A DNA stretch of 64,000 nucleotides from Myxococcota bacterium (lineage in GTDB: Bacteria; Myxococcota_A; UBA9042; PHBI01; JACKFB01), in assembly GCA_051747385.1 (NCBI GenBank), contig JBNJGB010000024.1:25797-89796 (forward strand). The letters are read 5' to 3'. The notes under the pieces were generated by a model. It was not told where the DNA came from, made no database searches, and was given only the letters and a program-made list of their open reading frames with translations. The position numbers and the translations under genes were made by a program. Every line of letters begins with the position of its first letter. Within the stretch, counting starts at the first letter, position 1. Below, piece after piece: positions 1,177 to 14,486 of the stretch.

Positions 1177-4100
1177 CTACACCAGTTCCGGGTTGGGGTT
1201 GCGGAGCTTCGCCAGGTACGAGGTCCGTGGCTTGACGTTCAACTCGCTCATCATCACGTAGTCGCGAGGCTGCTTCTTGGCGCGGGAGACGCGGCTGTCC
1301 GGGTCCGCCACGTCGCCGAAGACGATGGCGCCGGTCGGGCACGTCTGCTGGCAGGCGGTCTGGATGGCGCCGTCCTCCACCACGCCGTCGCCGTCGACCT
1401 TCGCGTCGATCTGCGCCTGGTTGATGCGCTGCACGCAGTACGTGCACTTCTCCATCACACCCCGGAACCGGACGGTGACGTCCGGGTTCTTCTGCATCTG
1501 GTGCAGCGGGTGGACGTCCTGGTTGAAGTTGAAGAAATTGAAGCGCCGGACCTTGAACGGGCAGTTGTTGGCGCAGTACCGCGTGCCGATGCACCGGTTG
1601 TAGGCCATGTCGTTGAGCCCGTCCGGGCTGTGGGTCGTCGCCGCCACCGGGCAGACGGTCTCGCAGGGCGCGTTCTCGCACTGCATGCAGGGGACCGGCT
1701 GGACGACGGCGTCGGGCTGGTCCGGGTCGTCGCCCACGTAGTAGCGGTCGATGCGGATCCAGTGCATCTCGCGGCCCTCGAGCACCCGCTCCTTGCCCAC
1801 GACCGGGATATTGTTCTCGGAGTTGCAGGCCACCGTGCAGGCGTTGCAGCCGATGCAGGCGTTGAGATCGATGCTCATGCCCCACTGCTGCTTGCCGGTG
1901 AGCGCAGGCTCCTCGAAGGGCGAGCGGATCATCTCCGGCTCGAGGATCTCCCCGTCCTCGACGAACTTCGGGTGCTCCCGGTACTCGGCGAGGGTGGCCT
2001 CCCGGGCCATGGGGCGCTTGTCGTACCCGAAGCCCGGCTCCAGCGTGTCGTGGTGCTGGGTGGTCGCGAGCGTGTAGGTGCCGGCAGCCTTCGTCACGCT
2101 GGCGCCACTCGCGAACCACTGCGCTCCGGTCGTGCGGAGCGTGTAGGTGTCGAAGCCGCAGTCGGCGGCGACGACGCCCAGGCTCTTCCGGCCGTAGCCG
2201 AGGGGGAGCACGACCGTGTCCTCGGCCACGCCCGGCGTGGGCCAGGCCGGGAGCTCGAGGCTGCGCCCGCCGTGGGAGACGGTGAGCATGTCCCCGGCGG
2301 TCACGCCGAGCCTGCCCGCCGTCTTCGGGGCGATGAGGGCGGCGTTGTCCCAGGTGAGCTTGGTGATGGGGTCCGGGATCTCCTGGAGCCAGCCGTTGTT
2401 GGCGAAGCGGCCGTCGAAGATCGTGGGATCCAGGATGAAGTCGATCTCGAAGCCCTCGGCGTCGCCGGCGTCGCCAGGGACGGCGCCCGCCAGGCCCTGA
2501 TAGGTCGGTGACGGGCCGGCCTCGCGGGCGGGCAGGTCGGCGACGCCGCGGTGGAGCCAGCGGCGCCAGTTCTCGTCCGACAGGGCCCCGTCGGTGGCGT
2601 CCTGCCAGAAGCCCTTCACCAGGTCGTGGCCCGTGAGCCACTTGCCCTCGACGATGCGCGCCGCGAGCTCGAGGATGCTCGACGTCTTGTGGAGCGGGGC
2701 GATGAGGGGCTGGACGATGGAGACGGTGCCGTCGGCGGCGCGGAGATCGCCCCACGACTCCAGGTAGTGGCTCGTCGGCAGGTGCCAGTGGGCGACCCGC
2801 GCCGTCTCGTCGCGGTGGGTGCCGGCGTGGAACACGGCCTCGGCACGGGAGAGCTTGTCCCCGAGCTCCAGGTCGGCCGGCGCCGTGTAGGCGGGGTTCG
2901 CGCCCAGGACGATCACCGTGTCGCAGTCGCCGGTGTCGAGCGCCTCGGCCAGCTCCGCCACGGAGTGGAGCTCCGGGAGGTCGTCCTCCGTGTACCAGTG
3001 GACGTGCTTCCCGTCGGCGCCGATCATGGTGTTGACCATGTGGCCGAGCGCGTGGACCCACGCGGGCTGACGCTCGCCGACGACCACCACGGAGCGGCCC
3101 CGGTTGTCCAGCAGGTCCTTCGCGATGGCCTTGACGTGCTCCGTGCCGCGAGGGTGGGCGTCGAAGGTCGCGTCGCCGAGCTTGCCCGCGGCGCCCGGAG
3201 CGTTCATCCCGTGGCCGTCCAGCAGCTCGGAGGCCAGGGCTTGGAGGAAGTCGCCCACCCGCGTTCCCTTCACGGCGAGGCGGTGGTCCGCCATGGCGGC
3301 CGTGACCGAGAACATCGGCCCGACCGCGTACAGGCGGTTCATCTCGTCCTTCGGGCCCTCGACCCGGCGGCCGTCGGAGAAATGCCGGGCCGCGGCGACC
3401 GCGTCCCCCTCGGTGTGGAGGAAGTCGCTGTCCAGGGAGACGACGACCTTCGCGCCCTCCAGGTCGTAGCGCGCGGCGGCCCTGTCACCGGCGGCGAGGG
3501 CGGCGCCGGCGCGCGCGTTGGCGGGCCAGGCCGGGTCCGAGACGACGATGCGGACCTGCGGGAAGGCCTCCTTGAAGGAGGAGAGCAGGCCCCGGAAGGT
3601 CGGCGAGACCACCGACTCCACCACGAGGGCCATGGAGGCGCAGTCGTTGTCGCGGGCGGCGGCCAGAGTCTCGTCGAACGCGGCCCAGGCCTTCTTCCAG
3701 GTGGTCTGCTGCTCGCCGTGGTACGGCTTCGTCGACCGCTCGGGGTCGTACAGCCCCAGGATCGACGCCTGCGCGTACGTGCTCGCGGCGCCGAGGGAGC
3801 CCGGATGCTCAGGGTTGCCCTCGATCTTGGTGGGCCGGCCGTCCTGGCTCTCGACCACCAGGGCCTGCACCGCGGCGCCGAGCTGGAAGGCCGTCGCGTA
3901 GAAGTTCGGGCGACCGGGGATGCGGTCCTCCGGACGCCTCGCGAACGGCATGATGTGCTCGGCCGGCTTCCGCACGCACCCTGCGATGCCGGTCCCCGCG
4001 AGGGCGGCGCTCGCGCCCATCAGCCCCATGAACTTGCGGCGGCTGACCCCGTCCACCTCCAGCTCGGCGGCGTCGGGCGTAAACTCCGGGGCGGGCGGCG

Positions 4101-4182
4101 CCGAGGGGCCGGGCGGCGAGGCCAGCTCCTCCAGGCTACGCCACTGTCGCCTGGTCTTCTTGGTGTCGCTCATCGGTGGCAC
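1177..4182 (-). CDS. actB: ACIII subunit ActB: molybdopterin-oxidoreductase-like domain fused to a 4Fe-4S ferredoxin domain, with a Tat signal
   Basis: 1001 aa. Twin-arginine motif [19 protein letters not shown]. Four Cys clusters: [46 protein letters not shown] and CTYCVQRI. The gene order with actA and actC is typical of ACIII. Confidence 0.85.
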
Positions 4183-4817
4183 CCCGAGCAGTGTTCAGGA
4201 GGGTTCACCGCGCGGGTCCGGTTCGGGTCCTGCGCCGGGTCGTAGTCGGCGGTGGCCGGATCCCACTCCATGTCGGTGACCTGGTCCAACGGCCGGAGGT
4301 TGGGCTCCGGATCCCGGTGGCAGTCCAGGCACCAGCTCATGGACAGCGGCTTCTGGAGGGTCACGACCTTCATCTGGTCGATGCGTCCGTGACACGACGA
4401 GCAGCCGACGCCCGCGGCCACGTGGACGCTGTGGTCGAAGTAGGCGTAGTCCGGCACCTGGTGGACGCGCACCCATGGCACGGGCTCTCCCGTCTCCCAG
4501 GACTCGCGGACCGGGGCCAGCTTCGGGCTCTCCGCGCGCACCTGCGTGTGGCAGTTCATGCACGTGGCGGTCGGCGGGATGGCCGCCTTCGCCGCCACCT
4601 CGACGGTGTTGTGGCAGTAGCGGCAGTCCATGCCCAGGTCGCCGGCGTGCAGCGCGTGGCTGAAGGGGACCGGCTGCTCCGGCCGATAGCCCACGTCGGT
4701 GTACCAGGGCGAGAACCAGTACCACACCGCCCCGACCACGCCGACCAGGACCAGCGGCGCGCCGACGCCGATGGCGGCGGGAATCTTGTTCGTCCAGCGG
4801 GGAAAGATGGCCGCCAC
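4170..4817 (-). CDS. actA: ACIII subunit ActA, membrane-anchored pentaheme cytochrome c
   Basis: 215 aa with an N-terminal TM helix and five CxxCH motifs (CRYCH, CMNCH, CSSCH, CLDCH, CSGCH). It overlaps the actB start by 13 nt. Confidence 0.85.
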   Translation of the reverse strand: MAAIFPRWTNKIPAAIGVGAPLVLVGVVGAVWYWFSPWYTDVGYRPEQPVPFSHALHAGDLGMDCRYCHNTVEVAAKAAIPPTATCMNCHTQVRAESPKLAPVRESWETGEPVPWVRVHQVPDYAYFDHSVHVAAGVGCSSCHGRIDQMKVVTLQKPLSMSWCLDCHRDPEPNLRPLDQVTDMEWDPATADYDPAQDPNRTRAVNPPEHCSGCHR

Positions 4818-5162
4818 GTCAATCCACCTTCGTCAACGGTTCCGTGGTTCGCAGCGTGCCGCCTGAGGCGACTGCCGGGCACTCGGACCCGGCGCTGGGA
4901 GGGCCGGATTTCGACCCCCCGGGGCGATATCGGGCGCGGACGGTACCAGCACGGTCGCCGGTAGGCAATAGCTCGATCGGGCCCTGTGGGCGACCCCGTC
5001 GGGCGTGCTGCATGTCGTTGGAACTATTCGTGTTCATGTGCTCTTCGCGAGCCTCGTGTGAGCCGCCCCGGAGCACCCTGTGCCGGGTGGGGGAGTGCCA
5101 CGGGGACATGGATCATTCGGAGGGGGCGGTGAGACTCCCATCCCCGCAGGGATCCCTGCCGG

Positions 5163-5846
5163 TCACAGGCGTCCCTCCTCGCCGGCCTCGCGCAGGACGT
5201 GCTGGGCGCGGTGGAACATCTCGTCGACGCCGTCGTCCGTGGACGAGTAGTAGCCGCGGATCCGGCCCAGGTCGTCCACGAGCACCAGCCTGGTGGTGTG
5301 GGCGATGTCGTAGACGTTCGCGTCGATCGGCTTCTTCTCGCCCATGGCCGTCCCGAATCCGTCGACCACGAGCGCCCGGATGTCTTCCTCGGAGCCCGTG
5401 AGGAAGTGCCACCGGTCGAAGTCCACGTCGTACTTCTGCGCGTACTCCCGCAGGACCTCCGGGCGATCGGTCTCGGGGTCGACGGTGACGCTGACCTGCT
5501 CCACCGGGACGCCCGCGCGCTCCACGCGCTCCGCCAGGTCGGCCATGGCGCCGGTGACCATGGGGCACGTGGTGGTGCAGGTCGTGAAGATGAAGCTGGC
5601 CACCCAGACGTCGCCCTCCAGCCCGTCGAGCCCGAAGGCGTCGCCGTCCTGGTCGACCAGCTCGAACTCCGGGACCTCTCCGAGCACCGGCGGCGGGTCC
5701 GGCACCTGGCGGAACAGGGGGCGGGACAGGGTGATGGCCAGGATCCCGAAGACGGTGCCCCACAGCCACGGGTGCTTGCGCAGGGAGCGCTGGATGGGGC
5801 CTCCGCGGTACGCCATGTCGTCCTGCCGAGCGGGCGCGTCGCTCAT
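5163..5846 (-). CDS. SCO1/SenC family copper chaperone (thioredoxin-like; cytochrome oxidase CuA assembly)
   Basis: CTTTCP (CxxxC) motif and an N-terminal TM anchor. The true start, MSDAPARQ at 5846, overlaps the permease stop as ATGA; the longer track ORF 5163..6608 is a frame run-on. Confidence 0.85.
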   Translation of the reverse strand: MSDAPARQDDMAYRGGPIQRSLRKHPWLWGTVFGILAITLSRPLFRQVPDPPPVLGEVPEFELVDQDGDAFGLDGLEGDVWVASFIFTTCTTTCPMVTGAMADLAERVERAGVPVEQVSVTVDPETDRPEVLREYAQKYDVDFDRWHFLTGSEEDIRALVVDGFGTAMGEKKPIDANVYDIAHTTRLVLVDDLGRIRGYYSSTDDGVDEMFHRAQHVLREAGEEGRL

Positions 5847-6703
5847 CGTCCGCTCCTCCCGTGCCGGCCGGAGACGAGGACGGCGAGGCCGCCGGCGGCG
5901 ACCGCGAAGCCGAGCAGGGCGAGCAGCGCCGTCCCGGGCCCGGCGACCGAGGCCGGGGCGACGCCGCCGTGCAGCGCGTGGCGCACCCCGTCGACCATCC
6001 AGGTCATGGGGTTCGCGGCCATCACGGCGTCCATCCAGCCCCCCTGGGGCGGGAACATGGCGCCGGAGACCATCCACAGCGGCAGGAGCAGCACGGCCAT
6101 GATGGCGTGGTAGCCGTGGGTGGAGCCCACGACCCAGGCCAGGCTGAAGCCCAGGCCGACCAGCCCGACGCAGCCCGTGACGAGCGCCGCCAGCAGGGGC
6201 AGCCAGGCGACGTCGCTCAGGGCGTAGCCCGCCAGCGGAGCGGCCAGCAGGCAGAGCAGCGCCTGGACCAGGGCCACCGTGGTCACGCCGGCGGTCTTGC
6301 CGGCCACCAGGGCGGCGCGGGACGCCGGTCCCACCAGGATCTGCTGCAGGAAGCCGTGCTGGCGATCCTCGATGACGGCCATGGTCGCGAAGACCGTGGT
6401 GAAGAGCACCACCATCACCAGGATCCCGGGATAGGACCAAGTGAGGTAGTCGACGCCGTCCAGGCCGGGGATCCGGAAGACCCCCGACATCCCGGCGCCC
6501 AGCAGCGCCCAGAAGATGAGCGGCTGGAGCACGACGCCGATCCAGCGGGAGCGCTCGCGGAGGAGGCGCAGCATGTCGCGGCGCCACAGCGCGCTGATCA
6601 CGCCCCACTCGACGGCGGCGGCCGAGGGACGCGCGCGCTCCTCGGCGGCGGCATCGGCCGCGTCGGGCCGGGGGAGGGTGTGCGCGGAGGAGGACGTGCT
6701 CAC
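5843..6703 (-). CDS. ABC-2 type transporter permease
   Basis: 286 aa with six predicted TM segments. It shows the ABC-2 family pattern and is start/stop coupled to the upstream ATPase and downstream SCO1. Confidence 0.75.
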   Translation of the reverse strand: MSTSSSAHTLPRPDAADAAAEERARPSAAAVEWGVISALWRRDMLRLLRERSRWIGVVLQPLIFWALLGAGMSGVFRIPGLDGVDYLTWSYPGILVMVVLFTTVFATMAVIEDRQHGFLQQILVGPASRAALVAGKTAGVTTVALVQALLCLLAAPLAGYALSDVAWLPLLAALVTGCVGLVGLGFSLAWVVGSTHGYHAIMAVLLLPLWMVSGAMFPPQGGWMDAVMAANPMTWMVDGVRHALHGGVAPASVAGPGTALLALLGFAVAAGGLAVLVSGRHGRSGR

Positions 6704-7656
6704 GCCGCCACCTCCACGCTCTCGTCCGCGTCCAGGGTGTTCCCCGTCCTCTCCAGGAAGACGTCGCCCAGGCCGGGGCGGCGGACGCTCACCGCGTTCA
6801 GGCGGCCGGGGGGCAGGGCCTCGACGATGCGCACCACGACCTCGTGGCCCCGCTCGCAGGTGACGTGCACCTCGCGGCCGTCCACGTGCGGGGACAGGCC
6901 GAGGTGCTCCTCGACGGCGGCGGCCAGCGCCTCGGGATCGTCGCCCTCGAGGACGACGCGATCTCCGCGGAGGTTCGACTTCAGGTCCTCGGGCGTCCCC
7001 TCCGCGACGACCCGGCCGCGGTCCAGCACCACGAGGCGGTCGCAGCGCTCGGCCTCGGCCGGGCGGTGCGTCGTCACCAACACGCCGGTGCCCGCGCGGA
7101 CGGCGAGGTCGGTCACCTGGCGCCAGGTGCGCTGGAACGCCGCCTCGTCGAGACCCGCCGTGGGCTCGTCCAGAAGCAGCAGGCGCGGGCCGTGCATCAT
7201 GGCCCGGGCCAGGTCCAGGCGGCGGCGCATCCCGCCGGAGTAGACCTCGACGGCCTCGCCGGCGCGATCCTCGAGATCCGCGTGGGTCAGGGCGCGCGCG
7301 ACGGCCTCGCGCAGGGCGTGGCCCGACAGGCCCCGCATCCGCCCCGAGAGCTGCAGGTTCTCACGCCCGGTCAGCTTCGCGTCGAGGCTCGGCGCCTGGA
7401 AGACGTACCCGAGGGCCGCGCGGGCCGCCCTGTCGATCCGCTCGAGGGTGCGCTCGAGGAAGCGGATGCTCCCCTCCTGCCGCGGGATCAGCCCGCCCAC
7501 GACGGACAGGAGCGTCGACTTGCCGCTCCCGTTCGGCCCGAGGAGGCCCACGACCTCGCCGGGGCCGACGTGGAGCGACACGCCGTCCAGGACGCGCCGA
7601 TCGCCGAAGCGATGGGCGAGAGCCTCGACCGCGAGCAGGGTGGGGGTGGGGGTCAT
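6700..7656 (-). CDS. ABC transporter ATP-binding protein (ABC-2/NosF-like), 318 aa
   Basis: Walker A GPNGSGKST, signature YSGGMRRR, Walker B LLLLDEPTAGLD. The start MTPTPT at 7656 overlaps the ctaB stop as ATGA; the track ORF 6700..8460 is a run-on. Confidence 0.85.
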   Translation of the reverse strand: MTPTPTLLAVEALAHRFGDRRVLDGVSLHVGPGEVVGLLGPNGSGKSTLLSVVGGLIPRQEGSIRFLERTLERIDRAARAALGYVFQAPSLDAKLTGRENLQLSGRMRGLSGHALREAVARALTHADLEDRAGEAVEVYSGGMRRRLDLARAMMHGPRLLLLDEPTAGLDEAAFQRTWRQVTDLAVRAGTGVLVTTHRPAEAERCDRLVVLDRGRVVAEGTPEDLKSNLRGDRVVLEGDDPEALAAAVEEHLGLSPHVDGREVHVTCERGHEVVVRIVEALPPGRLNAVSVRRPGLGDVFLERTGNTLDADESVEVAA

Positions 7657-8564
7657 GCGAGGAGGAGCCGGTCCAGCACGAACGCGATGGTGAGGAGGGG
7701 GAGATACGCGAGGGACGCGAGGAAGAAGTTGCGGGCCCAGCGGGGACCGGTCTGTGCGCGGAGGCCGGTGAGGCTCCAGGCGAGGAACCCGAGGCCCGAG
7801 CCCAGCGCCACCATCAGGTAGAGGGTGCCGGTCACGCCGAGGGGGGTGAGCAGGAGGCTCACGGGGAGGAGCGCGGTCGTCCAGGCGACCGCCTGGCGCC
7901 GGGCCACCTCGTCGCCGCGGACGATGGGCACGACGCGGATGCCGGCCCGGGCGTAGTCCTTCTTGCGGTACAGGGAGATGGCCAGGAAGTGCGGGAGCTG
8001 CCAGAGCAGAAGGATGCCGAAGAGCACCAGGGCGGGCTCGTCGATGCGGTTCGACGCGGCCGTCCAGCCCATGAGCGGCGGCATGGCGCCGGGCACGGCG
8101 CCGATGATCAGCGCGAGGGGCGTCCGGTACTTGAGCGGGGTGTAGACGGCGACGTAGGAGACCAGGGCGAAGGCGCCGAGGGCCGCCGTCAGGAGGTTGG
8201 TGGTCGTGGCGAGCACCCCCAGGGAGACGACGCCGAGCGTCACGCCGAAGACGAGGGCATTCCGGGGATGCATCCGCCCGGCGGCCACCGGGCGCCGCTT
8301 CGTGCGGGCCATGCGCCGATCGGGCTCGCGCTCCCACCACATGTTCAGGGCGTTGGCGGAGCCCACGGCCATGGCCGTCCCGAGGAGGGCGCCGATGAGG
8401 CCGACCCAGCCGGTCACCTCCGGAGCCAGCCAGAGGCCGGCCGCCGTCATCAGAAGGCACATCCGGGTGATGGACGGCTTGGTGAGGGCCGCGTAGTCGC
8501 CGACGACCTGGCGGAGAGAGCGGGGCGCGGCGGGCGCCGACGCCGTGTGGGGGGCCTGGCTCAA
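7653..8564 (-). CDS. ctaB: Protoheme IX farnesyltransferase (heme O synthase)
   Basis: UbiA-family polytopic protein with the typical LTKPSITRM...NMWWEREPD...VPGAMPPLMGW motifs. The start is uncertain: a TTG at 8564 overlaps the upstream stop as TTGA, and an AGGGGG Shine-Dalgarno sits 7 nt upstream. There is no in-frame ATG before the conserved N-terminus. Confidence 0.75.
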   Translation of the reverse strand: MSQAPHTASAPAAPRSLRQVVGDYAALTKPSITRMCLLMTAAGLWLAPEVTGWVGLIGALLGTAMAVGSANALNMWWEREPDRRMARTKRRPVAAGRMHPRNALVFGVTLGVVSLGVLATTTNLLTAALGAFALVSYVAVYTPLKYRTPLALIIGAVPGAMPPLMGWTAASNRIDEPALVLFGILLLWQLPHFLAISLYRKKDYARAGIRVVPIVRGDEVARRQAVAWTTALLPVSLLLTPLGVTGTLYLMVALGSGLGFLAWSLTGLRAQTGPRWARNFFLASLAYLPLLTIAFVLDRLLLA

Positions 8565-9019
8565 AGGATGACCCCCTGCTGGCCGGTGGTGCAGTACTGG
8601 ATGAGGGCCCGGTAGGCGTTCGTGCACGCCTTCTTGTTGGCGCGGGTCACGTCGTGCTCCTCGCACTTGTGATAGGTCCACTGCGCCCGCGCCGTCTCCG
8701 TGTCCCCGAGGCCGTCGCAGACCTCGCTGCGGTCCCGGGCGGCGAGGCAGTGCTCCATGGCCATGGGCACCGCGTGGTCGCAGAGGGTCTTCATCGCCTC
8801 GCAGCGACCGTTCCAGTCCAGCACCGCGGCCACGCATCCATCCGCGTCGAGTCGCACGCCCATCTCGTCGAACTCGGCCATGCTCTGCTGGATGTGCCGT
8901 TCGGAGGCGCGGTAGTTCCGGAAGGCGAGGACGCCCAACACGATCGCCAACACGAAAACGGTGCCGATCACCACGATCGCACCCCTGGCGGACCTCTCCT
9001 GTTGGTTGTCCTTCCCCAT
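8561..9019 (-). CDS. Hypothetical membrane-anchored Cys/His/Met-rich protein (152 aa)
   Basis: N-terminal TM helix (AIVVIGTVFVLAIVLGVLAF) followed by a soluble domain with 8 Cys, including CDHAVPMAMEHC. It is co-directional with and translationally coupled to ctaB. Confidence 0.5.
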   Translation of the reverse strand: MGKDNQQERSARGAIVVIGTVFVLAIVLGVLAFRNYRASERHIQQSMAEFDEMGVRLDADGCVAAVLDWNGRCEAMKTLCDHAVPMAMEHCLAARDRSEVCDGLGDTETARAQWTYHKCEEHDVTRANKKACTNAYRALIQYCTTGQQGVIL

Positions 9020-9180
9020 AGCGGCGCCTCTCTACGTGGACGAAGTGGGGCGTGTCAACGACGGGATCCGGGTTCACTTCTGGTTAAGTCGTGATTCCAG
9101 AAACCGCGTCGTTGAGCACGTTCAGCGCCCGTGGGGGCCAGGGCGTTGACGCGACCTCTCCGGGGGGTTACGGGCGAGGG

Positions 9181-10134
9181 ATGGTAGCACGCGAAGCCGA
9201 TCCCGTGGTCGTCGAGCGGGCGCTTTCGGTCCTCCGTGACGGCGGATGCGTCGCCCTCCCCACGGAGACCGTGTACGGCCTGGCCGTGGACGCCCGATCG
9301 GAGGCCGCGATCCGCCACCTGTTCGCGATCAAGGGGCGCCCGGCCGACCGCCCCCTGCCGGTCCTTCTGCCGGACGCCGGGGCGATGGGGGGCTGGGCCG
9401 AGGAGGTCCCGGAGGCCGCGCGGAGGCTGGCCGACGCGTTCTGGCCCGGCCCGCTCACCCTCGTCCTGCGGCGCGCGCCGGGCTTGCCCGACGTGCTGAC
9501 CGCCGGCGGCCCCACGATCGGGCTCCGCGTGCCCGATCACCCTGCGGCCCTGGCCGTGCTCCGCGCCTTCGGGGACGGCCTCGCGACCCCCTCGGCGAAC
9601 CGCCACGGGACGGTGAGCGCCACGAGCGCGGAGGGCGTGCGGCGGGACCTGGGCGAGGACGTGGACCTCGTGGTGGACGGCGGGCCGTGCGAGGTGGGCG
9701 TCGAGTCCACGGTGGTGGACGTCAGCGGACCGCGGCCCCGCGTCCTGCGCGCCGGAGCCGTCGGCCGGGAGGACCTGCAGCGGGCCCTGGGCTCGGACCT
9801 CCCGCTCGAGGGTGGCGAGGCCGGGGCCGTGACCGCGTTCCGGCCGGGGACTCGCACGGAGATCGTGCCCCGGGAGGCGATCGAGGCGCGGGCGCGCGGG
9901 TGCGTGGCTCGGGGCGAGGAGGTCGTGGTCCTCGTCACCCCGGGTCTCCTTGCGCTGCCCGAGGCGGTCCGGCGGGTGGGGCTCCCGGCCGACGAGGGCG
10001 AGCGGCGCCGGTCGTTCTACGTCCTCCTGCGGGAGGCCGACGCCGCCGGCGCGGACCGCGTCCTCGTGGAGGAGCCTCCCGATACCGCCTGGGGGCGGGC
10101 CATCCGGGAGCGATTGCGGGCGGCCTCGCCGTAG
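9181..10134 (+). CDS. tsaC: L-threonylcarbamoyladenylate synthase (YrdC domain plus Sua5 C-terminal domain)
   Basis: LPTETVYGLAVD motif, and GLRVPDHP. The ORF extends to 9091 but the M at 9181 (MVAREADPVV) fits the family N-terminus. Confidence 0.8.
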   Translation: MVAREADPVVVERALSVLRDGGCVALPTETVYGLAVDARSEAAIRHLFAIKGRPADRPLPVLLPDAGAMGGWAEEVPEAARRLADAFWPGPLTLVLRRAPGLPDVLTAGGPTIGLRVPDHPAALAVLRAFGDGLATPSANRHGTVSATSAEGVRRDLGEDVDLVVDGGPCEVGVESTVVDVSGPRPRVLRAGAVGREDLQRALGSDLPLEGGEAGAVTAFRPGTRTEIVPREAIEARARGCVARGEEVVVLVTPGLLALPEAVRRVGLPADEGERRRSFYVLLREADAAGADRVLVEEPPDTAWGRAIRERLRAASP

Positions 10135-10332: not shown

Positions 10333-10408
10333 TGGCGTCCCCAGAGGGAATCGAACCCTCGTTACCGGCTTGAAAGGCCAGCGTCCTGGGCCACTAGACG
10401 ATGGGGAC
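10333..10408 (-). tRNA. tRNA-Glu (anticodon TTC), CCA encoded
   Basis: Reverse complement is GTCCCCATCGTCTAGTGGCCCAGGACGCTGGCCTTTCAAGCCGGTAACGAGGGTTCGATTCCCTCTGGGGACGCCA. This is near-identical in architecture to canonical bacterial tRNA-Glu, with anticodon loop CTTTCAA. Confidence 0.85.
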
Positions 10409-10425
10409 CCGATCGGTCGTTGTCG

Positions 10426-10498
10426 TGAGCCGAGCGGGGGTCGAACCCGCGACCATTGGATTAAAAGTCCAGTGCTCTACCAGCTGAGCTATCGGCTC
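10426..10498 (-). tRNA. tRNA-Lys (anticodon TTT)
   Basis: Reverse complement is GAGCCGATAGCTCAGCTGGTAGAGCACTGGACTTTTAATCCAATGGTCGCGGGTTCGACCCCCGCTCGGCTCA. It folds as a cloverleaf with a GAGCCGA/TCGGCTC acceptor stem and anticodon loop CTTTTAA. Confidence 0.85.
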
Positions 10499-10536: not shown

Positions 10537-11694
10537 TCAAGCCGTGCCCGTCGGAGCCTCGCGGCGGGCGCGCATCATCGCGATGAAGGGATCGAAGAGG
10601 TAGTGCGCGTCGTGGGGCCCCGGGCTCGCCTCGGGGTGATACTGGACGCTGTAGCACAGACGGGCCTCCGAGGCGAAGCCCGCCACGGTGTCGTCGTTCA
10701 GGTTCAGGTGCGTCACCCGCGCGCCCTCGGGGAGCGAGCCCGCGCGTACGGCGAAGCCGTGGTTCTGGCTCGTGATCTCGACCTTGTGGCTGTCCTCGTG
10801 GCGCACCGGGTGGTTCGCCCCGTGGTGGCCGAACTTCAGCTTGTAGGTGTCCGCGCCCATGGCCAGGGCCAGGATCTGGTGGCCGAGGCAGATGCCGAAC
10901 AACGGCACCTTCCCCACGAGCCCGGCCACCTCCTCGCGGGCGCCCGCCACGGCGGCCGGATCCCCGGGGCCGTTGGACAGGAAGACCCCGTCCGGCTCCA
11001 TGGCGAGGACCTCCTCTGCGGGCGTGTCCGCCGGGACGACCGTGACCTCGCAGCCCCGCTCGAGCAGGTGGCGGAGGATGTTGTTCTTCACGCCGAAGTC
11101 GTAGGCGACCACGCGGTACGGCCGCTCGGGCTGCGGGAAGGCCTTCGCGTCCGACGGGTCGAGGTGCTGCGGTCGCTCGATCCAGCAGTAGGGGCCCGGG
11201 GTGGTCACCTCGCGCACCAGGTCGCGCCCCACCAGCCCGGGGACGCCCGCCGCGATGGCCCGCGCCTCGTCGTCGCTCGGGGCGGGGCTGAGGATCACGC
11301 CCGGCTGGGCGCCGGCCTCGCGGATGTGGCGCACCAGCGCGCGGGTGTCCACCTCCGTGATGCCCACGACGTCGTGCTCGACCAGGTAGGAGTGGAGATC
11401 CTGCGTGCCCCGGTAGTTCGAGACCACCGGGCTCACGGCGCGGACGATCAGACCCGCGGCGAAGACGCGGCGAGACTCGGGATCGTGCGGGTTGACCCCG
11501 TAGTTGCCGATCTCCGGATAGGTCATCGTCACGATCTGCCCGGCGTAGGACGGATCCGTGAGGATCTCCTGGTAGCCGGTCATGGCGGTGTTGAAGACGA
11601 CCTCGCCGGCCGCCTGCCCTCGCGCTCCGAGGGCGCGCCCCTCGAAGATGGTGCCGTCCGCCAGGGCGACGACCGCCCGCTCCCGCTCGCTCAT
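10537..11694 (-). CDS. carA: Carbamoyl-phosphate synthase small (glutamine amidotransferase) subunit
   Basis: 385 aa. CPSase small-chain N-domain plus a class-I GATase with catalytic FGICLGHQ. Its start overlaps the pyrC' stop as ATGA. Confidence 0.9.
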
Positions 11695-12992
11695 GTCACC
11701 TCCGCGTCGCTCGCACGCCAGATTTCACGGCCGCCTACCAGGGTCCGGACCGCGCGTCCACGGAGAACGCGACCGACGAACGGTGTGTTCCTTCCCCGGC
11801 TCCGCAGGGTGGAGGCGTCGGGGATCCAGGTGGTGCGCGGATCGATCACGGTCAGGTCCGCCCGCGCCCCGGCCGCCACCGAGGTCGCCTCGATGCCCAG
11901 GACCGCCCTCGGCCCGGCCGACAGAAGCTCCACGGCACGCAGCGGGGAGATCACGCCCTCGTCCACCAGCATCAGCACGAGGGAGGCCGTGGTCTCGATG
12001 GCGCTGACGCCCGTGGCGGCCGCGTCGAACTCCCGGGCCTTGTCCTCCGCGTGGTGGGGCTGATGATCGCTGACCACGGCGTCGATGAGCCCCTCCGCCA
12101 GGGCCTGCCGGAGCGCCTCCCGGTGGTGTGCGGCCCGGAGCGGGGGCCGGACGCGCGCGTCGGGATCGTAGTGTTCCAGGGCCTCCACCGTGAGGCTCAG
12201 GTGGTGGCCGGTCACGTCGCAGGTGACGGGCACGCCCCGCTCCCGGGCGGCGCGCAGGGCCGCCAGGCCGTCGGCGGTGCTCAGGCGCTGCAGGTGCAGG
12301 CGCTGGCCTGTCAGCTCCGCCAGGAGCGTGTCCCGGGAGACCCCGATGGCCTCCGCCGCGGCCGGGCTGCCCGGGAGCCCCAGGCGGGTGGAGGCCAGGC
12401 CCTCGTCGCAGAGCCCCTCCAGGGTCGGCTCGGTCGGCGAGATGAACACGGGGATGCCGAAGCCGCCGGCGTACTCCAGGAGGCGCCGCATGAGGCGCGC
12501 GCTCCGCAGCGGGTGCTCGCCCTGGCTCACCGCCACGCAGCCGGCCTCCTTCAGCTCGCCGATCGGGGCCAGGGTCTGGTCCCCCAGGCCGGCCGTCGCC
12601 GCGCCCACCGGCAGCAGGCGCGCGCCCTCGGCGGTCTCGGAGCGCTCGAGGATCTGGCGGACCACCGCCTCGCGATCCGTCACGGGCCGGGTGTCCGGGG
12701 TCGTGCACACCGCCGTGTATCCTCCGGCGGCCGCGGCCCTCAGGCCCGTGTGGACGTCCTCCTTGAACTCGAAGCCCGGCTCTCGGAGGGCGCAGCGCAG
12801 GTCCACGAGGCCCGGGACGAGCCAGCAGCCCTCCAGGGACTCGACGCGATCGCAGGGCTGCGGGGAGACGTCGCCGTCGCCGGGCAGGGCCACGCCGGTG
12901 ATCCGATCGCCCTCGACGATGACCGTGCCCGGGGCGTCCGTGCCCTCCACGGGGTCGAGGATGCGGGCGTCGTTCAGGACCAGGCGTGCCAT
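11691..12992 (-). CDS. pyrC: Dihydroorotase-like protein, probably non-catalytic PyrC' type
   Basis: 433 aa amidohydrolase fold with conserved [11 protein letters not shown] and VSDHQPH. The N-terminal metal-binding HxH is replaced: [11 protein letters not shown] where the family has DxHVHLREPG. Confidence 0.8.
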
Positions 12993-12993
12993 G

Positions 12994-13929
12994 TCAGCCC
13001 TCCTCCGCGAGGCCGCCGCCGGCCACCAGGTACAGGACCGCCATCCGCGCGGCCACCCCGTTGGCGACCTGCTCCAGGATGACGTTGTGCTCGCCGTCCG
13101 CCACCTCCGGCGCGATCTCCACGCCGCGGTTCATGGGGCCGGGGTGCATGACGATGGCGCCCGGCTTCGCCAGGGCCAGCCGCTCCCGGGTGAGCCCGAA
13201 GTAGCGGAAGTACTCCCGGTCGTCCGGGAAGAGGTCGTGGCCCATGCGCTCCTTCTGGATGCGGAGCATCATCACCACGTCGGCGCCCTCCAGGGCCGGC
13301 TCGATGCGCCGGTGGGCCGTCACGCCCAGGTCCTCGAGGTGCGGCGGCAGCATGGTCGCGGGACCGGCCACCCGCACCCGGGCGCCCATGGTGGTCAGGC
13401 CGAAGACGTTCGAGCGGGCCACGCGGCTGTGGTCGATGTCGCCGACGATGGCGACCTCCAGGCCGTCCAGCCGCCCGCAGTGCTGGCGCATGGTCATCAT
13501 GTCCAGCAGGGCCTGGGTCGGGTGCTCGTGCCAGCCGTCCCCGGCGTTCACCACGGCCGCGTCGATGTGTCGCGTGAGCAGGCCCGGGACCCCGGCGGAG
13601 GCGTGCCGGACGACCAGGATGTCCGGGGCCATGGCCTGGAGGTTCCGGACCGTGTCGATGAGGGTCTCGCCCTTCGACAGGCTGGACGTCGAGGCGCTGA
13701 AGTTCAGCGTGTCCGCGGACAGCCGCTTCTCGGCGATCTCGAAGCTGCTCCGGGTGCGCGTGGACGACTCCACGAAGAAGTTCACGACGAGCACGCCGCG
13801 GAGCGCGGGCACCTTCTTCATGCGGCGCTCGTTGACGCGCTTGAAGTGCTCGGCCAGGTCCAGGATCGCCGTGAGCGTGTCCCGACCGAGGTCCTCCATC
13901 CCCAGGAGGTGTGGCAGCGTGATGGCCAT
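12994..13929 (-). CDS. pyrB: Aspartate carbamoyltransferase catalytic subunit
   Basis: 311 aa with STRTR, HEHPTQ and HPGP motifs. The start, [10 protein letters not shown] at 13929, overlaps the pyrR stop by 1 nt. Confidence 0.9.
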
Positions 13930-14486
13930 CAGGCCCCCTCCTTCACGTAGAGCGCGATGCGATCCTCCGGGGCGCCCTCCTCGATCAGCTCCACCTTGAC
14001 GGAGTGGCGCCGCTCCGTCGTGATCTGCTGGCCGACGAAGTCCGCCTGGATGGGAAGCTCCCGGTGGCCCCGGTCCACCAGCACGGCGAGCCGGATCCAC
14101 TCGGGCCGGCCGTAGTCGATGACCGCGTCCAGCCCGGCCCGCACCGTGCGCCCCGTGTAGAGGACGTCGTCGACGAGCAGCAGGCGCATGCCCGTGACGT
14201 CGAAGGGCATCTCCGTGCGGCCCACGACGGGCTGGGGCAGGCCGATGAAGACGTCGTCCCGGTACAGGGTGATGTCGATCATCCCCTCGGCCGGCCGGAT
14301 GCCCTCGTCCTCCTCGATGAGATCCACGAGCCTGCGGCCCAGGTGCACCCCGCCGCGGTGGATGCCGACGACGGCGAGGCGTTCGACGCCGCCCGTGGAC
14401 TCGACGATCTCGCGGGCGATGCGCCTCAGCGCCCGTCGAATGCCGTCGGCGTCGAGGAGGATGCGCTGGAGACGAAGCTCGCCCAT
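13929..14486 (-). CDS. pyrR: PyrR bifunctional pyrimidine regulatory protein / uracil phosphoribosyltransferase
   Basis: 185 aa with the PRPP-binding loop [13 protein letters not shown]. Confidence 0.85.

Follow-up and report, generated by a model that had tools for sequence, protein, structure and literature searches.

An unannotated family of eight-cysteine membrane proteins encoded beside haem O and haem A synthase genes in Myxococcota-like bacteria

Introduction

The copper side of haem-copper oxidase biogenesis, with its factors SCO1, PCuAC and Cox11, is well charted, whereas the haem a side is much less so: the organisation of the haem O and haem A synthases, CtaB and CtaA, their outer-face helpers and the route of haem a to subunit I are only partly understood. 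Here we describe a small gene, hereafter X, located at positions 8561–9019 (minus strand) of a 64,000-nucleotide (nt) stretch of DNA from a Myxococcota bacterium (GenBank assembly GCA_051747385.1, contig JBNJGB010000024.1, positions 25,797–89,796 of the forward strand), which is referred to below as the window. X encodes an eight-cysteine membrane protein and directly precedes ctaB. What can most safely be said is that the function of the X family is linked to the gene cluster for biogenesis of the aerobic respiratory chain, and above all to the haem O/A synthases. We tentatively favour the reading that X is a membrane-tethered accessory or assembly factor of the haem synthases CtaB and, where it occurs, CtaA, which would make it a concrete candidate helper of the haem-a branch of oxidase assembly in a group of Myxococcota-like bacteria.

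Several described systems approach X in one respect or another. Surf1, CtaM/DUF420, CtaG/Cox11, PCuAC and SCO1 are, like X, membrane-anchored helpers whose genes lie within or next to cta/cox operons, and act on haem a or copper insertion. Neither X nor its relatives gave a Pfam or NCBIfam match to the models for Surf1, CtaM, Cox11, PCuAC or SCO1. X is predicted to be all-alpha and probably disulfide-rich, whereas SCO1 is thioredoxin-like and Cox11 and PCuAC are beta-rich, and the conserved His/Met copper ligands are absent from it. Membership of the SCO1/SenC family was rejected (no PF02630 match, an all-helical rather than thioredoxin-like model, no CxxxC), as was that of PCuAC (PF04314) or of another His/Met Cu(I) chaperone (no Pfam match; H82, M86 and H90 unconserved). 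The mitochondrial twin-Cx9C (CHCH) proteins Cox17, Cox19, COA6 and COX6B are likewise small, helical and situated on the P-side of the respiratory membrane, and they are dedicated to oxidase biogenesis, a likeness that X shares by its gene context. MgrB is a small single-pass protein that modulates the PhoQ kinase through periplasmic cysteines. Finally, Alternative Complex III (ACIII) may contain the extra subunits ActG and ActH, which are small and helical or have a single transmembrane (TM) helix, hold no cofactors, are restricted to certain lineages and have no homologues elsewhere; the R. marinus ACIII structure does not resolve ActG (PMC5928083).

Results and Discussion

The X gene and its junction with ctaB

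The X open reading frame (ORF) starts with ATG at 9019 and ends with TGA at 8563–8561 on the minus strand. Because an in-frame stop is found at 9034, ATG 9019 is the earliest possible start. The codon composition (GC content of 0.93 at third and 0.44 at second codon positions) is the coding signature of a high-GC genome. The protein contains eight Cys (residues 62, 73, 80, 91, 101, 119, 132 and 143), five His and six Met; residues 80–91 form the stretch CDHAVPMAMEHC. A preliminary description of this DNA had reported a 152-amino-acid (aa) eight-cysteine ORF with an N-terminal TM helix, and this is confirmed by the sequence, by an AlphaFold2 (AF2) model and by 204 homologues. X is a real gene. 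Its features are as follows.

8561..9019, minus strand: X, first gene of the operon, 152-aa eight-cysteine protein (ORF list, sequence, homologues)
9027..9032, minus strand: GAGAGG, a Shine-Dalgarno-like hexamer 7 nt 5' of ATG 9019, read from the sequence and putative in function
8921..8980, minus strand: codons for residues 14–33, the single TM helix with the small-xxx-small pair S/A/G25 and G29 (hydrophobic stretch within AF2 helix 12–53)
8582..8857, minus strand: codons for residues 55–146, the all-helical eight-Cys domain, putatively periplasmic and with four probable disulfides (conservation, Cys parity, AF2, topology)
8561..8564, minus strand: TTGA junction, in which the stop TGA of X overlaps the start TTG of ctaB (sequence)

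The overlap of the X stop with the ctaB start, noted previously, holds, and the two genes are coupled; the ctaB start itself is refined to the TTG at 8564–8562 that overlaps the stop of X, in place of an ATG. The next possible start in the ctaB frame, GTG 8627, lies within the X gene. In GenBank, X is annotated 16 codons shorter (ACQEXJ_16380, 136 aa; P0001 in our set, from a Myxococcota metagenome-assembled genome, MAG), a late start that drops the N-tail conserved by relatives of 55–60% identity. Compared with the deposited start, ATG 9019 with its GAGAGG site appears to be the better one.

A conserved family without a name

An exhaustive profile search, covering 1.84 billion representatives of clusters formed at 50% identity, retrieved 204 cluster representatives related to X at E≤1e-3, 149 of them at E≤1e-10. 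Almost all of these proteins are 130–200 aa long and match end to end; the best match, P0002, is a close relative of X (E 6.6e-82). A word-indexed homology search found just 3–6 relatives, the GenBank version among them, whereas an alignment restricted to one subfamily (motif CxAMK[ST]LCD) yielded four genome loci and seven metagenome loci. The X protein of the window carries every invariant column of the family, and it has the single N-terminal TM helix as well as W69 and R97. The MAGs from which the named members derive carry the labels Myxococcota, Deltaproteobacteria, Pseudomonadota, Silvanigrellaceae and Candidatus Schekmanbacteria. In one member, P0074 (272 aa), the eight-Cys domain is fused behind three TM helices, which in turn follow a zinc ribbon (CPDC...CRFC) at the N-terminus.

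All named members are annotated as 'hypothetical protein'. X has no match in Pfam or NCBIfam, and nothing consistent emerged when 112 of its relatives were compared with Pfam: the stray matches, to PF05051 COX17 in one relative (E 0.0027) and to Coa3_cc in two, are about what chance gives over 112 scans. A phmmer search with X produced no sequence match in the PDB beyond noise or designed TM helices, and the family profile matched none of the PDB chains at E≤10. Searches of the literature on subunits of ACIII, on ctaB/SCO1 clusters and on accessory proteins of CtaA brought up no description of the family. The family is therefore conserved, unnamed and devoid of a Pfam or NCBIfam model, in agreement with the preliminary description, which had called the protein uncharacterised on sequence grounds; comparison of folds (see below) leads to the same view. 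While the operon itself is of a known kind, X represents a new, unannotated family without a matched fold, comprising more than 200 clusters at 50% identity.

X usually adjoins the haem O/A synthase genes

Gene neighbourhoods were established from contig gene tables and from tblastn searches with the window proteins against all fetched loci, and distinct loci were counted. X adjoins ctaA or ctaB in 18 of the 21 informative loci and lies directly upstream of one of them in 17. The arrangements observed were the following.

X immediately upstream of CtaA, 10 loci: L001, L006, L009, L014, L015, L023, L024, L025, L026, L027
X immediately upstream of CtaB, in a cluster without ctaA, 7 loci: window, L004, L012, L013, L016, L020, L021
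Order CtaB-SCO1-X, one contig (P0002): SCO1 directly adjoins X

The typical full cluster reads X - (CtaA) - CtaB - (ABC ATPase, ABC-2 permease) - SCO1 - (cytochrome c) - ActA - ActB - ActC. In the window and in L001, L003, L006, L009 and L027, X and the next gene overlap by 4 nt, and even a distant member of the family, P0147 (E 7e-12), keeps the order X>CtaA>CtaB. The proximity to ctaB on which the preliminary description had staked its functional suggestion is thus a property of related genomes as well, X being kept with ctaA/ctaB and SCO1 across relatives. SCO1 belongs to the X operon in the window and in nine further loci (L004, L006, L009, L012, L013, L015, L016, L023 and L024). The constant neighbour of X is CtaA or CtaB, not SCO1.

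ACIII genes usually follow downstream: those for ActA and ActB, oriented like X, are found there in the window and in nine other loci (L004, L006, L009, L012, L013, L015, L016, L018 and L023), and in L018 ACIII is present with neither ctaA nor ctaB between it and X. Since published ACIII structures carry lineage-restricted extra subunits (PMC5928083), X might be a lineage-specific accessory structural subunit of ACIII or of an ACIII-oxidase supercomplex, with a role like that of ActG or ActH. This seems improbable to us. X always occupies the end of the cluster that is far from the act genes, its translational coupling is to ctaA or ctaB and never to an act gene, and in L026, where the ACIII genes are divergent, X is still beside CtaA; nor does the family profile match any ACIII chain among those of the PDB. 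Moreover, ActH is by description helical, periplasmic, soluble and Cys-poor, whereas X is membrane-anchored and has eight Cys, and the ActG gene closes the act cluster at its 3' end, while X stands at the 5' end, coupled to ctaA/ctaB. The solved ACIII subunits (ActA–F and ActH) were rejected as relatives of X, with neither a PDB sequence match nor a fold match.

Conserved residues and predicted fold

Conservation was counted in an alignment of 112 family members. No member lacks cysteine 62, 73, 80, 91, 101, 119 or 132, and C143 is missing from a single one (111/112), giving the pattern Cx10C-x6-Cx10C-x9-C-x(about 17)-C-x(about 12)-Cx10C. Other conserved positions are R97 (105/112), W69 (101/112), L92 (100/112) and G54 (91/112). 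Within the TM helix, residue 29 is Gly in 87 members and residue 25 is small in 98 (Ser in 57, Ala in 31, Gly in 10); G29 and the small residue 25 would form a small-xxx-small face of the sort typical of helix-helix packing in membranes.

AF2, supplied with the family alignment, predicts an all-helical structure for full-length X (predicted local distance difference test, pLDDT, 94.1; predicted template modelling score, pTM, 0.83) and for the domain alone (residues 44–152; pLDDT 94.3, pTM 0.87), and the helical nature of the fold is a confident prediction. A long helix, 12–53, comprises the TM segment and a stalk, and is followed by shorter helices at 59–71, 77–82, 84–92, 98–103, 106–109, 112–121 and 126–144. 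Comparison of the model with known folds gave no meaningful match, and the matches listed include no saposin-like, CHCH, Csp or ACIII chain. Membership of the saposin-like (SAPLIP) group, whose disulfide-stapled, lipid-binding helical domains have six nested Cys, was rejected. Three Cys pairs, 62/73, 80/91 and 132/143, are spaced by exactly 11 residues and each is assigned to one helix. The two cysteines of each Cx10C pair would thus be three turns apart and share one face of their helix. A 6-residue turn links the first two Cx10C helices, and pairing of C62 with C91 and of C73 with C80 would staple them into a hairpin.

The soluble part contains eight Cys in 98 of the 112 members, ten in nine and nine in five, so that the number is even in 107. 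In the nine ten-Cys sequences the additional cysteines come in pairs: seven carry them at about 125 and 130, P0034 carries them at 59 and 100, and P0147 likewise has two. Even parity together with paired gain of extra cysteines is what one would expect if an exported protein held its cysteines as disulfide partners, and the eight-Cys domain probably contains four disulfides.

The preliminary description had put forward Cu(I) binding through the Cys, His and Met residues of X. A copper-handling factor of this kind, with reduced cysteines binding Cu(I) as thiolates, much as in Cox17 or, on a small scale, in the Csp copper storage proteins (four-helix bundles whose cores are lined with many Cys), and feeding SCO1 and the CuA/CuB centres, could draw on the eight invariant Cys within a helical bundle, on the SCO1 gene that shares the operon in ten loci including the window and adjoins X in the P0002 contig, and on the single PF05051 COX17 match. 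The last is a match of a quality expected about 0.3 times by chance in 112 scans, and direct comparison by hhalign returned probabilities of 0.2% for COX17 and 0.4% for COX6B1. The His and Met residues of CDHAVPMAMEHC on which the suggestion was founded are rarely kept: H82 in eight members, M86 in nine (Arg in 60) and H90 in 16. The column of M88 contains Met in 67, Val in 19, Thr in eight and Leu in seven members, and appears from these substitutions to behave as an ordinary hydrophobic core position. None of the usual Cu(I) motifs (CxxC, CC, CxC, MxxM) or any Met-rich motif occurs among the cysteines of X. By helix geometry, cysteines 11 residues apart on one helix would be about 16 Å from each other and could not share a metal. 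Parity and paired gain fit disulfides instead, and it is CtaA or CtaB, rather than SCO1, that accompanies X constantly. We therefore regard a copper-handling role as unlikely, and the assignment based on unconserved residues is corrected here.

Topology

The N-tails of the 112 members have a median length of 18 aa (up to 48) and are charged, with basic residues beside the TM helix. In the fusion protein P0074, the loop between TM2 and TM3, SARRSGKQTKAKG, is strongly basic and the zinc ribbon is of the cytoplasmic type; the zinc ribbon, the three TM helices and the basic TM2–TM3 loop together place the Cys-rich domain outside the cytoplasm, so that P0074 serves as a natural marker of topology. 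We infer that the X domain is periplasmic. The disulfide-rich periplasmic fold that the preliminary description had offered as its alternative to copper binding is thus the one favoured by Cys parity, paired gain and topology. Export by the twin-arginine translocation (Tat) pathway was considered and rejected: RR occurs in 21 of the 112 N-tails and a Tat-like pattern in ten, and neither is found in the protein of the window.

A possible role at the haem O/A synthases

X would consist of a short basic cytoplasmic N-tail, one TM helix, a helical stalk and a compact all-alpha periplasmic domain of about 95 residues, and would lead a translationally coupled respiratory-biogenesis operon. As an accessory factor of the synthase module, it might dock to the polytopic CtaB/CtaA through its TM helix, with its rigid periplasmic domain covering the two enzymes on the outer side of the membrane, and it could then either stabilise the CtaB/CtaA complex or help to pass farnesylated haem to the haem-copper oxidase.

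Several points weigh against this reading. A physical partnership with CtaA/CtaB and a haem-handling or stabilising role are suggested by gene context only. No conserved His, Met or Tyr stands out among the family columns as an axial haem ligand, with the exception of the aromatic position 136. The positive-inside count is neutral, with 2.38 Lys and Arg on either side of the TM helix. Members of the family come solely from MAGs or metagenomes; no cultured carrier was found and there is no genetics. Finally, in three divergent loci (L018, L002 and L017) X is not beside ctaA or ctaB, and the X domain is therefore not exclusively tied to the haem synthases.

The neutral positive-inside count would also suit a protein facing the cytoplasm, in which the eight invariant Cys might form two four-Cys layers within the helical bundle. 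Such a metal-cluster protein, with two Cys4 sites for Zn or Fe-S, could serve, for example, as electron donor to haem A synthase; we know of no identified electron donor of bacterial CtaA, and one JGI record automatically names a member of the family 'Zn ribbon protein'. The P0074 fusion and the charged N-tails, which put the domain outside, speak against it, as do the paired extra Cys, which fit disulfides, and the Cys spacing, which fits no known Fe-S or zinc motif. Furthermore, seven loci including the window have X with ctaB and no ctaA nearby. We consider this explanation very unlikely.

The loci in which X is separated from ctaA/ctaB bear on another possibility, namely that X is a periplasmic redox or thiol sensor which modulates a membrane partner through its TM helix according to the oxidation state of its Cys, and so adjusts either the expression of the aerobic respiratory chain or its activity. 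The divergent subfamily, which is distinguished by a Pro-rich insertion after the stalk, includes L018 (2536–8697) and L019, where the X gene overlaps by 14 nt the gene for a six-TM histidine kinase whose best model is ActS/PrrB/RegB (NF033792, E 1.5e-63); a RegA-like regulator (ActR/PrrA/RegA, NF033791, E 5.8e-48) and then ActA/ActB follow. In L002, X is followed by a sigma-54 response regulator, and in L017 it stands alone beside a receiver gene. The arrangement in L018/L019 connects the X domain, in certain lineages, with the redox control of respiration. X is always the first gene of its operon, and with so tiny a cytoplasmic tail a signal would need to cross by way of the membrane helix. 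MgrB offers a parallel, since X resembles it in having an N-in single-pass anchor and probably periplasmic Cys and, in this subfamily, a gene overlapping that of a kinase; X is, however, about three times larger, has a folded eight-Cys domain and in most members is encoded beside biosynthetic enzymes rather than kinases. Indeed, the linkage to regulators is confined to three divergent loci, as against 18 with ctaA/ctaB, and the kinase, at 215 bits, and the regulator, at 163 bits, fall short of their NCBIfam cutoffs of 350 and 250 bits. Redox switches usually employ one or two Cys pairs, whereas X has four that are invariant and structural-looking. A sensory function of X is, in our view, quite unlikely, and an accessory role at the haem synthases is preferred, if tentatively.

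Likeness to the CHCH factors

The nearest analogy to the possible mode of working of X may be the CHCH group. CHCH factors have Cys pairs about three helical turns apart on antiparallel, disulfide-stapled helices; the arrangement of C62/C73 and C80/C91 on consecutive helices joined by a 6-residue turn would have the same stapled-hairpin geometry in X, and this likeness is one of analogy only. The differences are considerable: the spacing is Cx10C rather than Cx9C, there are eight Cys and about seven short helices rather than one hairpin, and X is membrane-anchored and bacterial rather than soluble and eukaryotic and lacks the CC copper site of Cox17. Membership of the COX17/CHCH family was rejected, given the low hhalign probabilities cited above (obtained with manually entered reference sequences) and a Pfam match in one of 112 members.

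A bolder proposal, which we judge rather doubtful, is that X is a membrane-tethered, independently evolved bacterial counterpart of the CHCH-type factors, with haem A/O synthase as its partner, and is needed for haem a delivery or for the redox state of the Cys in the outer loops of CtaA. If true, it would give a handle on the bacterial step between haem A synthesis and insertion into subunit I.

Other genes of the operon and its surroundings

The genes that follow X in the window, and the one transcribed divergently from it, are listed below.

7653..8564, minus strand: ctaB, haem O synthase (TIGR01473, E 2.5e-85; 286.6 bits, above the cutoff of 210.3; Pfam UbiA)
6700..7656, minus strand: DrrA-like ABC transporter ATPase, ATGA overlap with ctaB (Pfam ABC_tran; TIGR01188 drrA, E 1.1e-63, below cutoff)
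5843..6703, minus strand: DrrB-like ABC-2 type permease, GTGA overlap (Pfam ABC2_membrane; TIGR01247, E 4e-46, below cutoff)
5163..5846, minus strand: SCO1/SenC copper chaperone, ATGA overlap (PF02630, E 3.8e-30)
4170..4817, minus strand: ActA-like multihaem cytochrome c of ACIII (Pfam Cytochrome_C7)
1177..4182, minus strand: ActB-like molybdopterin/FeS subunit of ACIII (synteny; Fer4/Molydop_binding domains recorded on homologues)
9091..10134, plus strand: Sua5/TsaC gene, divergently transcribed from X (Pfam Sua5_yciO_yrdC)

X, ctaB, the ABC ATPase, the permease and SCO1 are chained, all five, by 4-nt overlaps (TTGA, ATGA, GTGA and ATGA). With the ATPase and permease in between, SCO1 is the third gene past ctaB, and the earlier placement of SCO1 three genes downstream holds when counted in this way; counted from X it is the fourth. 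The DrrA/DrrB-like pair (5843–7656, minus strand) is translationally coupled to both ctaB and SCO1, and the same pair occupies the same place in L006, L009, L012, L013 and L024.

CtaA, the gene for which lies between X and ctaB in ten related loci, was not detected by tblastn (E≤1e-5) anywhere in the 64-kb window. Either this genome encodes CtaA at another place or the oxidase uses haem O.

A 345-bp gap (4818–5162) separates SCO1 from ActA in the window. In the relatives L004, L006, L009 and L023 a monohaem cytochrome c gene is found at this position, whereas tblastn (E≤1e-5) revealed no cytochrome c in the gap; apparently the window has lost this gene or never had it. The ActA of the window is 57–72% identical to the product of the gene 5' of ActB in related loci with a full-length ActA, and its ActB is 47–53% identical to, and syntenic with, the gene at the ActB position in most related loci. 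At 4165–4190, the ActA stop and a possible ActB ATG (4173) likewise form an ATGA overlap, and the ActB start given by the ORF finder, GTG 4182, may be three codons too early.

In L027 (2928–6559), the locus of a distant relative, the start of X shares 4 nt with a GAF-domain gene, and an unannotated 207-aa gene without a Pfam or NCBIfam match follows ctaB at the usual SCO1 position. On the other side of X in the window, the Sua5/TsaC gene keeps the same position in L006, L009 and L021 and has no evident functional link to X. Between Sua5 and the block of pyrimidine genes carA-pyrC-pyrB-pyrR (10537–14486) lie genes for tRNA-Glu (ttc) and tRNA-Lys (ttt) at 10333–10498 on the minus strand.

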